Below, in pieces: positions 14,677-19,005 of a DNA stretch of 61,180 bases (the stretch's first letter is position 1; each line of letters starts with the position of its first letter). A program made the position numbers and the translations under genes. The DNA is from Candidatus Limnocylindrales bacterium (lineage in GTDB: Bacteria > Chloroflexota > Limnocylindria > Limnocylindrales > CSP1-4): positions 1 through 61,180 of the forward strand of contig DASXTH010000072.1 in NCBI GenBank assembly GCA_036505555.1. The letters run 5' to 3'. A model generated the notes under the pieces. The model did no database searches. It worked only from the letters and a program-made list of their open reading frames with translations, and was not told where the DNA came from.

Positions 14677-17600
14677 TCAGGGCGTCTCGCGCTTCGTCGT
14701 CCGGCGCGGCTTCCGAGCCGGCTTCGAGGGTGGCGGCGGCGCCACCGTTCCGAGCAGGCGATTGACGTCCTCGCGGAGGGCCCGCAACTCCCGGACCTCC
14801 GCTTCGAGCGCGGCGACCCGCTCGCCATCGCCCGGGGCCCGCTGCGCCTGACGGAGCTCGGCGACCTGGCCACGCAAGTCGGCCAGTTCTTCGTCTCGAT
14901 CATGCACGGCGTTCACCAGCGCCCCGACGTCGGCATCCGCCGACGCCGTCAGAGCACTGCTCGGCCGACCGATCGAGTAGTAGCTCACGGCACCACCCGA
15001 TTCGAACAGGGTCACCTCATCGCCTGATCGCGGGGAGCGGATCAGCCCGAGCAGATCCCCGATGAGGGCGAGCGGATCGTCGGTCCTCTCGGCGGCTCGG
15101 CGAACGGAGATTCCCTGCTCGGTGAGGCGCTTGTCGACCTGGTCTGTCGGCCGGCCGACGACATTCCCGACGCGGAAGCCGGGATCGGCCGGGCCGCGGC
15201 CCAGCGAGCGTCGGGCCGTGTCAGCGACCATTCGGCCGGCCACGTTGGCCCGCGTCCATGCGTCGTGGATCAACGCGCCGAAGTCAGTGCTCTGGGCCAG
15301 GTCGACGTTCGACCGCCCGGTCGAGTAGCGGTATTTCGGCGCCTCGCGGGCGGCGTCCGGGTCACGCTCCGGCGGCTCATACCGACCGAAGAGATCGGGT
15401 AGCACCATGCAACAGAACTCCTCGACGACCCGCTGCACGAGCGGCATGACCGGAACCACCGACAGCCAATAGTCGATCGTGGGGAAGCTCTTCACATATC
15501 GCCGCCGCGAGAAGTTGCAGACCTTGTAGACCTGGCCGTCGCGAATGTTGATCGAGCCAAGGTAGATCCGCTCTCCGCCGGCGCACGCGGGGCAGGCAAC
15601 CATCAGCTCGTCGCACAGGCAGTCCTTGAGGTACTGGATGAGGCCTGCCACGAGGTCGCGGAACGCGAGGAGGATCTGCCGTCGATACTCGGCGAGCTCA
15701 TCGAGCGGGAACCGGTATTCCGGCTCGAGGACCCGGTCGGGGAGGACCGTGATCGTGTCGCTCCAGTAGTTCAGCACGTAGGCAAACCCGGATTCCTCGT
15801 TCGCCGCCCCGGACACCGGGCCGACCTGCACGGGCAGCTCGTAGTTGGCGACCACCTTGTGGCCTTCGAGCGAGATCGCGGTGACGTTGCAGTCGTCCTC
15901 GTTCACGACGAGCAAGACGCCGGTCGGCTCGTACGGCACGAGCTTGACCGGTCCATCACCGATCTCGATGTTGGCGCGCTGAGATCCGGTCAGGCCGTCG
16001 AAGGCGATTACGTGACGGGTCCCGATCCCGGCCGGGCCCGCGACCACGTACACCGTCCCGCCGTCCCCGGCACGCGGCGCCACCGCGAGATCATCGCTGC
16101 CCTCGGGCACCTCGACGATCGGCCCGAACGTGGCCGGCGTCCCGATCGTGAAGCTCACCAGGCGGGTGTACTCCGGAACCGGGTTGCCCTCGTCGGTGCC
16201 GACCGCGGTCGCGTAGCCGCGGCCTTCGTCGGTCAGGACGAGATGACCGGACGCCCGGAACTCGAGCACCGGAGGCATGCTCGGGTCGACGGCCGTTGGA
16301 TCGATCTGGAACAGGCCGCGCCGGGCACCGATTGCGTACACCTGCTCGGGATCCGCACGAGTGGTCGCCAGCGAGAGGAGCTCGACATCGCAGATCGTCA
16401 CGAGCTCGCCCCAGTCGACCCCGTCGTCCCTGACCCGCCCGGCCCGGAAGAGCGTGTTCTGGCCGTTCTTCGTCGGGGCGATGACATAGACCCGACGGCC
16501 GTCCGGCGAGAAGGCCACATCGGTGATCGGCCCGGCGCCGGAATCCGGCTCGGCGTCGTCGGCGACGACCGTCCCGGAGATGGGTGCCAGCCGCTGGAGG
16601 ACCACCGGCTCCTGGAGGTCGTATCGGTTCAGCCCGCTCGACGGGTGGATCGGATTGATCCCGCCGCCGACCGTCCAGACCTCGCGCTTGCCGGGTCGGA
16701 CGCGGATCCGCTGGTGATGGTCCGACGCGAAGATCGTATCCATCCCCGGGAACAGATCGGAATACTCAGGAAACGGCGTCGCCCCGTCGAACATCGCGCA
16801 GAACGTCTCGCTCTCCAGGAGCTTGCGAAGCTCGACGTAGAAGCCACGCATGATCTCGTGCTCGCGACCCGAGAGGTAGATCGTCTGGCTGGCCTTCGGG
16901 TTGAGGATCTGGGCGATGAGGGACGCGAGGATGGCCTGGCGCTCCCCGATCCGGCCGCGGCGCTGGGTTTCCGTTCCGAGCTGATCCCGGACGAATGTCT
17001 CGATCGGCGCGATGCACTCCTCGTACACCCGGTTCCAGAAATCCCCGGCCAGCGGGTTCTTCCGTTTGTCCCAGCCCGGGTCGTAGAGCTCGACGTGGAA
17101 CTCGCGACCTCGCACGACATCGTTCGTCATGAACAACGACAAGTCGCCGCGACCATCGATGACCACGCCGTCGTTCGTCATCTGGTCCAGGACGTCGAAC
17201 GACTCGGTCTCGTCGATGTTGACGTCGTTTCCGTCGCAGTCGATCGCGTAGCCGGAACCGACCGAGATCGTTCGGCGGTCGCCCTCCTTGGCGTCGGGAC
17301 CGCACTGGACGCGGAGGCCGCACACGATCCCCCAGCCATGGAGGTGCTTCTTGTGGTGGCGGAGCGTGCTGCCTTCGCAGAGGACGTCGATCGCGTCCTG
17401 GACCGTCTGCGCGCCGGGGATCGCGCACGCCTCGTTATCGAACGAGACGTCGTCCGCGGCGATCATCGTCAGCGACGGGAAGGGCTCGCGGCAGTCGTGG
17501 ACCGCGGTCGCGGCGCCGCCCTCGGTCTGGACGAGGGCGAGTGGCGCGTAGTGATGGACGATTCCGTCGGGCGGACGCGAAAGCGGGCGCTCCAGGGAGT

Positions 17601-19005
17601 CGCGTGGCCATTCCACGTCGTGGGTCGCCGTCCGGGCCGGGATGAGCCAATGGTCGCCGGTGTTGTAATGACCGGGCTCGAAGCGGATCTGGACGCCGTC
17701 CTCCAGATCGAGGTACCCGTCGCCTGGGCCTTGCGCGACGGTGATCGCGGCGCTCGTCGGGTTGTCCCAGCGACGGATCCGAGGGTTGCCGGGGAAGTCG
17801 TTCCGGTCGACCGCCGGCCCGGCGATCGTGAGCTCGTCGTTGGTCGGCGGCTGGGACACGGTCGCGAGCACGCCCGGCCGTCCCTGGAGCTCCCGGGTAT
17901 CGTCGATCAGCTCGACCAGCTGGTTCGTCGCGAACCCGAGCACCGAGTCCCGGCCGAGGCTGCTGACCGCCAGGGTGTTGCCGATCTGGCCGATCCAGAG
18001 CACCGCGATCGATGCGTTCTCGCGGGACCAGGTGAACGTCGCGGTCCCGAGCTCGCCGGGGTCGTGCACGTGGACTCGGTAGAGCTGGTTCTCGAGGCCC
18101 TGATAGCGGGCGTCGGGCGGGATGTCACAGATGTCGTCCGCATCCGCGATGGGCGTCGCGCGTGCGGCCAGCCGACCGGTGCTCGGTGGCCGATCGCCGC
18201 CCGTCGTGCTCCCGGCGAACAGGTCCGGCAGCGGCGCGATGGTCGCGCAGTCCGTGACGAGGTCCGGGCCGACGTGCTTGATCCGGACCTGAGCCATGGT
18301 CCGCGTGCGGGTCGCCGTGTCGAGTCCGCCGAGCGCCGGCTCGAGCAGGGCCGGGTCGTCGACCGCCGTGATCGAGCGGAGCCACGCATCGAGGTAGACC
18401 AGGTAGGTCCCGTCTTCGAACTCGACGGTGGGCGGAGACCCGGCGGCCCCGCCCGACGCGAGCTCCGGAGCCGGAAGGTCCGGCTGGGTCGTGTACGAGG
18501 CGAGTCGCCGAACCCGGGCGCCCTCGATCTCGGTGTCGTCGAGGGAGGGCTCGACGGCGAGAGTCCGCGCGGCCTCATCGACCGATGCGATCCGGACGAC
18601 CTGCGGCTCGATGGCACCGCTCGGATCCCGGATCTCGATCCACTCATCTGCGGTGAGCTGACGGTCGTCGACCACGATCCGCTCGACGGTGACCTGATCC
18701 GCGGCGAGGCTCGTGACTTCGATCTCTTCGGCGTCGAGCTCGCACAGGAGTCCATCGACGTACAGCCGGCCCGCTCCGATCGTGAGGTCGGCGCCGCCTG
18801 GCGTGATGCCGATCACGAAGCCGCCGCCGACCTTCGGGACCCCGCGCCGGCCGATCGTGTCGATCCGGGTCGTCTCGCCCAGGTACGACCCGATGTCCTG
18901 CGACTCGTTCCAATCCGCGTCGAGCTGGACGCGACCCTGTTGCATCCCGACGTCGTGGAAATGCTTGCGCGGCCGGAAGGTCGCTCGGCTGATGTCTCCG
19001 TTCAT
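14677..19005 (-). CDS. Giant (1442 aa) multidomain protein in the tail-fibre position: DUF6519-like N-terminus, YVTN-type beta-propeller repeats, Cys-rich segment, C-terminal coiled coil and basic tail
   Basis: ATG at 19005 with GGAG 9 nt upstream, 11 nt after the gpI-like stop. The N-terminus RATFRPRKHFHDVGMQQGRVQLDADWNE matches my recollection of DUF6519. Repeats include RVYVIAPTKNGQ, TVYVVAGPAG, LLVVNEDDCNVTAISL and FAYVLNYWSDTITVL. Heptad-like segment ELADLRGQVAELRQAQ...LEAEVRELRALREDVNRLL. Confidence 0.8.
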   Translation of the reverse strand: MNGDISRATFRPRKHFHDVGMQQGRVQLDADWNESQDIGSYLGETTRIDTIGRRGVPKVGGGFVIGITPGGADLTIGAGRLYVDGLLCELDAEEIEVTSLAADQVTVERIVVDDRQLTADEWIEIRDPSGAIEPQVVRIASVDEAARTLAVEPSLDDTEIEGARVRRLASYTTQPDLPAPELASGGAAGSPPTVEFEDGTYLVYLDAWLRSITAVDDPALLEPALGGLDTATRTRTMAQVRIKHVGPDLVTDCATIAPLPDLFAGSTTGGDRPPSTGRLAARATPIADADDICDIPPDARYQGLENQLYRVHVHDPGELGTATFTWSRENASIAVLWIGQIGNTLAVSSLGRDSVLGFATNQLVELIDDTRELQGRPGVLATVSQPPTNDELTIAGPAVDRNDFPGNPRIRRWDNPTSAAITVAQGPGDGYLDLEDGVQIRFEPGHYNTGDHWLIPARTATHDVEWPRDSLERPLSRPPDGIVHHYAPLALVQTEGGAATAVHDCREPFPSLTMIAADDVSFDNEACAIPGAQTVQDAIDVLCEGSTLRHHKKHLHGWGIVCGLRVQCGPDAKEGDRRTISVGSGYAIDCDGNDVNIDETESFDVLDQMTNDGVVIDGRGDLSLFMTNDVVRGREFHVELYDPGWDKRKNPLAGDFWNRVYEECIAPIETFVRDQLGTETQRRGRIGERQAILASLIAQILNPKASQTIYLSGREHEIMRGFYVELRKLLESETFCAMFDGATPFPEYSDLFPGMDTIFASDHHQRIRVRPGKREVWTVGGGINPIHPSSGLNRYDLQEPVVLQRLAPISGTVVADDAEPDSGAGPITDVAFSPDGRRVYVIAPTKNGQNTLFRAGRVRDDGVDWGELVTICDVELLSLATTRADPEQVYAIGARRGLFQIDPTAVDPSMPPVLEFRASGHLVLTDEGRGYATAVGTDEGNPVPEYTRLVSFTIGTPATFGPIVEVPEGSDDLAVAPRAGDGGTVYVVAGPAGIGTRHVIAFDGLTGSQRANIEIGDGPVKLVPYEPTGVLLVVNEDDCNVTAISLEGHKVVANYELPVQVGPVSGAANEESGFAYVLNYWSDTITVLPDRVLEPEYRFPLDELAEYRRQILLAFRDLVAGLIQYLKDCLCDELMVACPACAGGERIYLGSINIRDGQVYKVCNFSRRRYVKSFPTIDYWLSVVPVMPLVQRVVEEFCCMVLPDLFGRYEPPERDPDAAREAPKYRYSTGRSNVDLAQSTDFGALIHDAWTRANVAGRMVADTARRSLGRGPADPGFRVGNVVGRPTDQVDKRLTEQGISVRRAAERTDDPLALIGDLLGLIRSPRSGDEVTLFESGGAVSYYSIGRPSSALTASADADVGALVNAVHDRDEELADLRGQVAELRQAQRAPGDGERVAALEAEVRELRALREDVNRLLGTVAPPPPSKPARKPRRTTKRETP

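Follow-up and report, generated by a model that had tools for sequence, protein, structure and literature searches.

The tail fibres of extracellular contractile injection systems (eCIS) determine the injection target and are also the part that is re-engineered for retargeting. Here we describe a protein of 1442 amino acids (aa) with an N-terminal DUF6519 domain, encoded in the fibre slot of an eCIS operon within 61,180 nucleotides of contig DASXTH010000072.1 (the window) from Candidatus Limnocylindrales bacterium (Chloroflexota). In the searchable literature DUF6519 occurs only in a 2025 bioRxiv preprint and its 2026 Nat Commun version by Nachmias et al., which call it eBAP5 and place it among five eCIS baseplate anchor protein (eBAP) domains that form the N-termini of tail fibres (PMC12923769). 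The eBAP5 genes number 658 and correlate with Actinobacteriota, and fibre genes lie directly downstream of baseplate genes in ~90% of cases (PMC12923769). Macroglobulin, pectin-lyase and lectin/hemagglutinin modules are given for the eBAP5 C-termini with stress on domain swapping, eBAP3 fibres are reported to carry lactonase and other enzymatic domains, and propellers recur in eCIS fibre-like proteins (PMC12923769).

Other described systems offer further points of comparison. TssK of the type VI secretion system (T6SS) and the shoulder proteins of siphophage receptor-binding proteins (RBPs) are proposed structural analogues of the eBAP3–5 shoulder regions, these proteins being trimers that link a wedge protein of TssG/gpI type to an external partner (PMC12923769). 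Cis13 of Anabaena is a trimer with its N-terminus on the baseplate and a C-terminal triple helix that leads to a transmembrane (TM) helix in the thylakoid membrane (PMC8894136). The contractile injection systems (CIS) of haloarchaea are cell-bound (PMC11566945), as are those of Streptomyces (PMC12237407).

The gene is a complete open reading frame (ORF; 14677..19005, minus strand) with an ATG start and a host-like G+C content at third codon positions (GC3) of 0.88, and its translation has the length given in a preliminary description of this DNA. That description had proposed DUF6519 from a few N-terminal residues, and the hidden Markov model (HMM) PF20129 confirms it with 175.3 bits in three stretches (gathering cutoff 22.4; E 2.7e-51). 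Weak DUF4815 and phrog_877 matches cover aa 7–108, and PDB sequence and profile searches with the N-terminal domain gave no match (7B5H All3314 at E 1.8 only). The operon, judged by its gene content, is an eCIS locus. In gene order it has the sheath, a gp19-like tube, a T4_baseplate-like protein, Pvc16_N and an AAA+ ATPase, continues with three eCIS_core (DUF4157) effector-like proteins, a papain-like protease, CIS_tube and a VgrG-like OB protein, and ends with a 105-aa PAAR-like protein, gp25, two Baseplate_J-like proteins, a 774-aa protein and the 1442-aa protein. The stop of the upstream gene ends at 19017 and the ATG is at 19005, leaving the 11-nt gap noted earlier, and a GGAG ahead of the ATG overlaps that stop (TGAGGAGCACCCGGATG); the pair has the look of translational coupling. 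Next comes a UbiA prenyltransferase gene in convergent orientation, followed by housekeeping genes (Cys/Met pyridoxal phosphate enzyme, phosphoenolpyruvate carboxykinase, malate dehydrogenase and subtilases), so that the 1442-aa gene is the last of its operon, again as first described; a promoter and terminator scan of the downstream intergenic region found nothing. The phosphoenolpyruvate carboxykinase in the window is 86–88% identical to proteins from 'Candidatus Limnocylindrales' and Chloroflexi metagenome-assembled genomes, and the host is most probably an uncultured, high-GC member of the Chloroflexota from soil. Pfam/HMM annotation of the operon proteins revealed no other fibre candidate.

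Relatives of the protein number 2970 at E <= 1e-3, and the best 120 of these are 1290–1650 aa long, collinear over 82–100% and 35–86% identical, with PF20129 in all. When looked up in public assemblies, the exact sequence had no record. A scan of one genome per GTDB species yielded 80 loci, ~60 of them with the full architecture, in at least nine phyla overall: Chloroflexota, Actinomycetota, Acidobacteriota, Bacteroidota, Proteobacteria (several classes), Planctomycetota, Verrucomicrobiota, Gemmatimonadota and Armatimonadota. The family occurs in monoderm and diderm phyla. Wherever enough flank is available, these ~60 loci have the gene order VgrG, PAAR, gp25, first and second Baseplate_J, the 774-aa gene and the DUF6519 gene, and the synteny with the preceding baseplate gene on which the assignment had been made to depend is upheld throughout.

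Beyond the anchor domain, an AlphaFold2 (AF2) model of aa 540–1442 (903 aa, 77 homologs) has a predicted local distance difference test score (pLDDT) of 83.8 and a predicted template modelling score (pTM) of 0.72. It folds aa 756–1089 as a 7-bladed propeller (pLDDT >90), in agreement with the YVTN-like blades of the preliminary description. Foldseek searches of the PDB and BFVD with the 903-aa model returned WD40/YVTN propellers only (E ~1e-12); these dominate, and no match to the fold of the stem was obtained. The family profile matches three blades of the archaeal S-layer YVTN propeller 1L0Q (E 6.8e-13) and also hydrazine synthase beta (2.9e-7). Three further features were correctly noted from the sequence. 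The Cys-rich stretch reads C1129-L-C1131-x6-C1138-xx-C1141, is followed by C1163 and C1198/C1199, and is conserved. The coiled coil of ~60 aa consists of two helices (33 and 25 aa; aa 1356–1388 and 1394–1418) separated by APGDG, whose heptad a/d pattern is equalled by just 5/2000 and 13/2000 shuffles; this region contains the motif LExELxELRxFRxEV conserved in family C-termini. The Lys/Arg/Pro tail has 7 K/R, 1 D/E and 7 P among its 24 residues and is predicted to be disordered.

A PASTA-like domain (PF03793), which would bind peptidoglycan, at aa 1278–1346 was considered and rejected. It scores 14–15 bits against a cutoff of 23.2 over the first half of the model only and appears in 14/42 homolog segments, all sub-threshold. 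The predicted secondary structure has an extra helix, and a dedicated AF2 model (pLDDT 68.6) gave no Foldseek match below E 0.2. A recurrent, sub-threshold PASTA-like signal lies at aa 1278–1311.

Cysteines of the family covary in pairs. In an alignment of 166 family members (counts are both present/both absent/discordant), C562–C1138 gave 152/14/0, C590–C1141 104/60/2, C1131–C1198 143/22/1, C664–C1129 158/5/3 and C527–C543 156/9/1; C253–C505 covaries partially, and C1163 and C1199 are jointly lost in two unrelated sequences. On a neighbour-joining tree C562–C1138 and C590–C1141 each underwent ~10 independent joint events, and the losses involve many different replacement residues; given these separate joint changes, the covariation of both pairs is more than shared ancestry alone accounts for. 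In the alignment the seven pairs behave as a disulfide signature, and this reading is supported by the Cys density, which is 1.66% in the C-terminal 903 residues and 0–1.1% in the other structural proteins. Of the four cysteines in the Cys-rich stretch, C1129 is partnered with the helical domain, C1131 with the downstream helix, and C1138 and C1141 with two beta-domain strands. Because each has its own distant partner and its own level of conservation, disulfides are preferred and a Zn or Fe-S cluster was rejected. The stretch would then be a hub that staples together the segments on either side of the propeller, giving one stem (aa 541–755 and 1090–1210) composed of the beta domain with the shoulder motif, helices and the hub itself. 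Invariance leaves C293, C568 and C736 with no assignable partners, and C872, which is lost singly, is probably a free cysteine.

The architecture is held constant over large distances. In the most distant loci the C-terminal part aligns with 96–99% coverage at ~30% identity; the 774-aa and Baseplate_J proteins there align over 18–40%. Each globular region is 70–82% identical among the six closest homologs. With the core (aa 545–1205) as query, an exhaustive HMMER search gave 225 clusters (50% identity) at E <= 1e-30, and in full-length matches the module starts nearly always at aa 440–580 of 1100–1650-aa proteins (a few at ~750–780). Neither the homolog alignments nor the region identities nor the core clusters contain a hypervariable region, mosaicism or C-terminal swapping in the family. 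On the strength of this coverage, the even regional identity and the constant module position, the post-anchor part is best described as a fixed architecture and not a swappable cassette. Variation is greatest in the second half of the propeller (aa 921–1089), which exceeds all other globular regions in this respect, and in the last 230 residues. The most conserved stretch, KVCNFSRRRYVKSFPTIDYW (aa 1161–1180; nt 15466..15525), is basic/aromatic with 82% mean identity; this loop is of low confidence in the monomer model (pLDDT ~46–73) and could be an inter-subunit or partner-binding interface. A shorter variant of ~1145–1160 aa in Bacteroidota, Gemmatimonadota and some Actinomycetota lacks aa 1211–1350, aligns only as far as ~aa 1203 and ends soon after aa 1205.

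The weaker matches from the genome and IMG/VR scans fall in other eCIS loci, whose fibre-slot genes code for stand-alone proteins of 490–670 aa (e.g. L066, L067, L072, L083 and L084). Two collinear segments are shared with the 1442-aa protein: aa 549–605 (HLHGWGIVCGL...GYAIDC; BLASTP E 7e-8 to 6e-10) and aa 1107–1202, which is the hub and keeps the same Cys spacing (BLASTP E 2e-15 against the L066 protein). The stand-alone proteins have the shoulder motif HGxGIVCGL...GYAIDC, the C-x-C-x6-C-xx-C hub, CN..RRY and the CC doublet but lack the 540-aa DUF6519 N-terminus and the 334-aa propeller, in whose place a Cys/Gly-rich insert lies between motif and hub. The shared segments are ~235 residues apart in these proteins and ~500 in the 1442-aa protein, and since this difference matches the propeller that the stand-alone homologs lack, we infer that an older stem module received the propeller by insertion. 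Several stand-alone proteins end in a coiled coil, and one ends in ...LEALRAAPGKKPTPAKKPEK (a KKPTPAKKPEK tail), like the tail of the 1442-aa protein. A local HMM built from the stand-alone proteins scores 54–60 bits against the shoulder motif of aa 541–650. The NCBIfam equivalog CIS13_fam (NF053767) matches locally in 27/28 members (best 1.3e-8; profile positions 31–87/392), with 20–26 bits for the 1442-aa family against a 370-bit cutoff (23–78 bits for the stand-alone proteins and the 1442-aa protein together); this is a shared local motif and not family membership.

Two observations stand beside this comparison. The N-terminal FRPR...DADWNE was considered as the detached first 25 positions of the shoulder motif, separated by a 510-aa insertion, and this was discarded as the local HMM matched in 3/120 with negative scores. 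L083 (6600..11275) and L084 (9623..14228) lie on IMG/VR contigs that are classed as viral and contain sheath, VgrG, gp25, Baseplate_J, AAA and eCIS_core genes. Each has two consecutive fibre-slot genes, both with the shoulder motif; in the first it is joined by a propeller-like region and collagen-like GxxGxx repeats, in the second by a Cys/Gly-rich insert, the Cys hub and a coiled coil.

We favour, with moderate confidence, the interpretation that the 1442-aa protein is an extracellular eCIS baseplate fibre (the Cis13 position) that binds a conserved target. It had been singled out as the best positional candidate for recognition or anchoring, and this view is strengthened by the fibre slot in ~60 loci and by the published DUF6519 anchor domain. 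No TM helix is present in the protein (maximum 19-residue Kyte-Doolittle mean of 1.4, in a charged segment), none is convincing in 60 homologs inspected and none occurs in any other operon protein; on this basis a TM or membrane anchor was set aside. The paired cysteines, together with this absence of TM helices from protein and operon, favour extracellular function. As to outward or intracellular action, the evidence leans extracellular, although sequence does not decide the matter. In the favoured interpretation the N-terminal part would fix the protein to the baseplate periphery, probably as a trimer, with the 774-aa and Baseplate_J proteins as likely contacts. Particles would be assembled in the cytoplasm and then released, and in the oxidising exterior the Cys pairs would close and rigidify the stem. 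The propeller, aided by the cationic tail, would touch a widespread conserved component of the target-cell surface, and this contact would be relayed to the baseplate, leading to sheath contraction and delivery of the DUF4157/eCIS_core effectors encoded in the operon. The protein would be a fixed, vertically co-evolving part of the eCIS lineage, not a swappable receptor-binding cassette.

A more specific version, a redox-armed fibre that spans phyla, is speculative and in our judgement rather improbable. Here ~seven disulfides would be open in the producer cytoplasm and closed only after release, such that firing occurs only outside the cell. Closure would lock the stem and expose the invariant basic/aromatic loop (aa 1161–1180) and the propeller, and the target would be a ubiquitous envelope component, for which reason the 1400-aa architecture would be kept from Chloroflexota to Proteobacteria.

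Several points weigh against the extracellular fibre. Conservation of the whole protein across phyla is atypical of a classical receptor-binding fibre and is just as compatible with a structural or regulatory role in the baseplate. The presence in particles, the oligomeric state and the ligand of the DUF6519 family are matters that we infer. The upstream 774-aa protein has no HMM match to the Tail_P2_I adaptor proposed for eBAP5 (PMC12923769), and the window yielded no identifiable genes for lysis or release. The full Cys set is also found in lineages labelled as anaerobes (Syntrophobacteraceae, Clostridia and Bacteroidales metagenome-assembled genomes), where spontaneous Cys oxidation is less obvious. 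The tail is poorly conserved: most close relatives have a basic one, whereas that of several homologs is acidic or neutral.

Some of these points lend weight to a conserved structural or regulatory baseplate component (a peripheral cage, stabiliser or firing latch), with target specificity, if any, residing elsewhere. The family evolves at a rate near that of other baseplate proteins (median identity of 32–42%, against 38–46% for the Baseplate_J and 774-aa proteins), mosaicism and C-terminal swapping were not seen, and the most conserved loop is poorly modelled in the monomer, as expected of a protein-protein interface. However, a purely structural role would hardly call for 900 post-anchor residues with a surface-exposed propeller and a flexible charged tail, fibre-like proteins of phages and eCIS repeatedly contain propellers (PMC12923769), and the operon has no other fibre candidate. 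The variability of the second half of the propeller is what an exposed binding face would be expected to have, and on balance a structural role is unlikely, though it carries some weight. The propeller could instead be an enzyme, lactonase-like or polysaccharide-degrading, with the protein serving as a depolymerase tail spike that opens the way to the surface of the target. Hydrolases are known among 7-bladed propellers of the YVTN/SGL type, eBAP3 fibres are reported to bear lactonase and other enzymatic domains (PMC12923769), and a lactonase-like viral propeller is among the many Foldseek matches. This reading is nonetheless very improbable, as no enzymatic Pfam or NCBIfam family matches (generic propeller repeats only, below threshold), the propeller that matches best in sequence, a YVTN propeller of an S-layer protein, is not an enzyme, and the propeller of the 1442-aa protein is without an evident conserved cluster of catalytic-type residues; most of the conserved His and Cys residues are located in the stem.

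It is also improbable, in our assessment, that the protein tethers the baseplate inside the producer, like Cis13 of the thylakoid CIS (tCIS) or TssK of the T6SS (membrane complex), with the polybasic tail and coiled coil binding anionic membrane lipids or the nucleoid and the system firing from within or killing the producer. Streptomyces CIS do kill the producer. The 1442-aa protein ends in a heptad coiled coil and a cationic tail, which recalls the membrane-anchored C-terminal triple helix of Anabaena Cis13 (PMC8894136), and cell-bound CIS are known from archaea (PMC11566945) and from Streptomyces (PMC12237407); conservation of the whole length across phyla would fit a conserved cellular partner. 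Yet neither the protein nor its homologs have a TM helix or clear amphipathic anchor, the operon has no membrane protein, and seven disulfide-type Cys pairs would be unexpected in a reducing cytoplasm. The variable tail, acidic in some members, and the occurrence of the family in monoderm and diderm phyla with their differing envelopes also argue against such an anchor.

A 1678-aa ORF upstream (19017..24053) had been taken for gpI. Homologs, tblastn and a frame/GC3 map divide this ORF into two genes in different frames, the second Baseplate_J-like gene and the 774-aa gene (Table 1), and on these grounds the ORF is a high-GC artefact. The 774-aa protein has no match in Pfam, NCBIfam or PHROGs, Tail_P2_I included, even at E 0.1; the identity and size of gpI are the only particulars of the preliminary description that did not hold. 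The 774-aa gene always directly precedes the DUF6519 gene in this family (~60 loci).

Table 1. Positions of the fibre-slot gene, its domains and other features in the window
Feature	Coordinates	Strand	Evidence
1442-aa DUF6519 (eBAP5-class) fibre-slot protein, complete gene	14677..19005	-	ORF translation, homologs
aa 1–540: DUF6519/eBAP5 N-terminal domain with RVQLDADWNE	17386..19005	-	Pfam PF20129, E 2.7e-51
aa 541–650: beta domain with shoulder motif HLHGWGIVCGL...GYAIDCDGND	17056..17385	-	AF2 strands, CIS13_fam, BLASTP
aa 651–755: helical part of stem, precedes propeller	16741..17055	-	AF2 helices aa 656–730, pLDDT ~76–97
aa 756–1089: 7-bladed YVTN-type beta-propeller in stem	15739..16740	-	AF2, Foldseek, profile
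aa 1090–1210: long helix, Cys hub, most conserved stretch	15376..15738	-	Conservation profile, Cys covariation, BLASTP
aa 1211–1350: helical segment and small alpha/beta domain	14956..15375	-	AF2 secondary structure
aa 1351–1418: two heptad-repeat helices, 33 and 25 aa	14752..14955	-	AF2; shuffle test
aa 1419–1442: disordered Pro/Lys/Arg tail, net charge +6	14680..14751	-	Composition; pLDDT <50
774-aa baseplate gene (previously called gpI)	19017..21341	-	tblastn with locus L001 genes; synteny in ~60 loci
Second Baseplate_J-like gene, 914 aa	21338..24082	-	Pfam Baseplate_J 7.6e-8; frame/GC3 map; tblastn
First Baseplate_J-like gene, 807 aa	24079..26502	-	Pfam; tblastn
105-aa protein	26860..27177	-	
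Papain-like (Peptidase_C1) gene	30222..31049		
Three tandem eCIS_core (DUF4157) genes	31155..37919	-	
Sheath gene	44594..46513		
BTAD protein 5' of sheath gene	46657..47226	-	
UbiA prenyltransferase gene	13163..14302	+	
Subtilase and trypsin-like protease genes	609..7531	-	
Other BTAD protein	49..471	+	
RskA-like anti-sigma factor	53310..54176	-	
ECF-type sigma factor	54173..54853	-	
AsnC-family regulator	54856..55347		

Elsewhere in the operon, the three tandem eCIS_core proteins have 605, 729 and 846 aa, the largest with additional YkuD L,D-transpeptidase and Peptidase_C15 matches. Their GC3 of 0.74–0.78, below the 0.86–0.93 of the remaining operon, suggests that they are more recently acquired cargo; the papain-like gene lies next to them. 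The 105-aa protein has four Cys, sits between the VgrG-like and gp25 genes in a position kept in most related loci, and has no Pfam match; it is probably a PAAR-like spike tip. Two proteins in the window have BTAD (SARP-type) transcriptional activator domains, and the one directly 5' of the sheath gene may regulate the eCIS operon. Two tandem subtilases (728 and 1077 aa) with PA and Fn3-like domains, accompanied by a trypsin-like protease gene, lie a few kb downstream. An extracytoplasmic function (ECF)-type sigma factor gene is followed by that of an RskA-like anti-sigma factor (53310..54853 in all), with an AsnC-family regulator beside them.

What is new here is the fixed architecture spanning phyla, the disulfide-type Cys network centred on the Cys-rich stretch, the propeller inserted into a stem common to other eCIS fibre-slot proteins, and the extracellular argument that results. 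The published catalogue is one of extreme modularity; this family is the opposite, with one long fixed architecture and paired cysteines in at least nine phyla, and it points to a conserved ligand. Actinobacterial CIS have long been assumed to be intracellular only. If the pairs are disulfides, they would be an indicator, readable from sequence, of a CIS lineage that acts outside the cell, which bears on the question of outward or inward action and is relevant to the systems of Actinomycetota and Chloroflexota. The family includes cultured carriers, namely Nocardioides taihuensis CGMCC 4.7318, Phytohabitans rumicis, Marinobacterium sedimentorum, M. aestuariivivens, Mucilaginibacter flavidus and Aliiglaciecola sp. 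CAU 1673.

Among known systems, the adenovirus-like fibres Afp13 and Pvc13 share the operon slot and the presumed target-binding role, but they belong to the anchor class eBAP1, not eBAP5, and have no sequence or domain similarity. Pfam and PHROG searches found no Av_adeno_fibre or phage fibre domains in the 1442-aa protein, tblastn against 50,697 phage genomes gave no match, and IMG/VR gave two weak loci only, both eCIS loci. The preliminary description, which saw no resemblance to Afp13-type or phage fibres, holds at the level of sequence, but two segments are common to other eCIS fibre-slot proteins. The relation to 1L0Q, a Methanosarcina mazei surface-layer protein, is limited to a 7-bladed propeller of the YVTN repeat family; both are assigned to cell-surface or extracellular proteins, but the contexts (S-layer and injection-machine fibre) and the other domains differ. 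No sequence similarity to T6SS TssK or siphophage RBP shoulder proteins was detected. The tCIS Cis13 (All3316 of Anabaena, PDB 7B5H) also occupies the fibre slot, with a baseplate-binding N-terminus and a C-terminal helical bundle projecting away (PMC8894136), but it is small and has a thylakoid TM helix, whereas the 1442-aa protein has a propeller and paired cysteines and no TM helix; the family has no significant sequence match to the 7B5H chains, the sole trace being All3314 aa 40–88 (E 1.8).

With the eBAP5 fibres the protein shares the N-terminal DUF6519, the gene position directly 3' of the eCIS baseplate genes, and a distribution in soil lineages rich in Actinomycetota and their like. 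The concept of a fibre-slot protein with DUF6519 is therefore already published, although the 1442-aa architecture is not described in that text; an entry of ~1460 aa in its supplementary Pfam table, with an N-terminal DUF6519 and weak propeller-type and C-terminal coiled-coil matches, looks like a member of this family (PMC12923769). Where the published eBAP5 C-termini are variable and modular, the family described here has one fixed stem/propeller/coiled-coil architecture without swapping.

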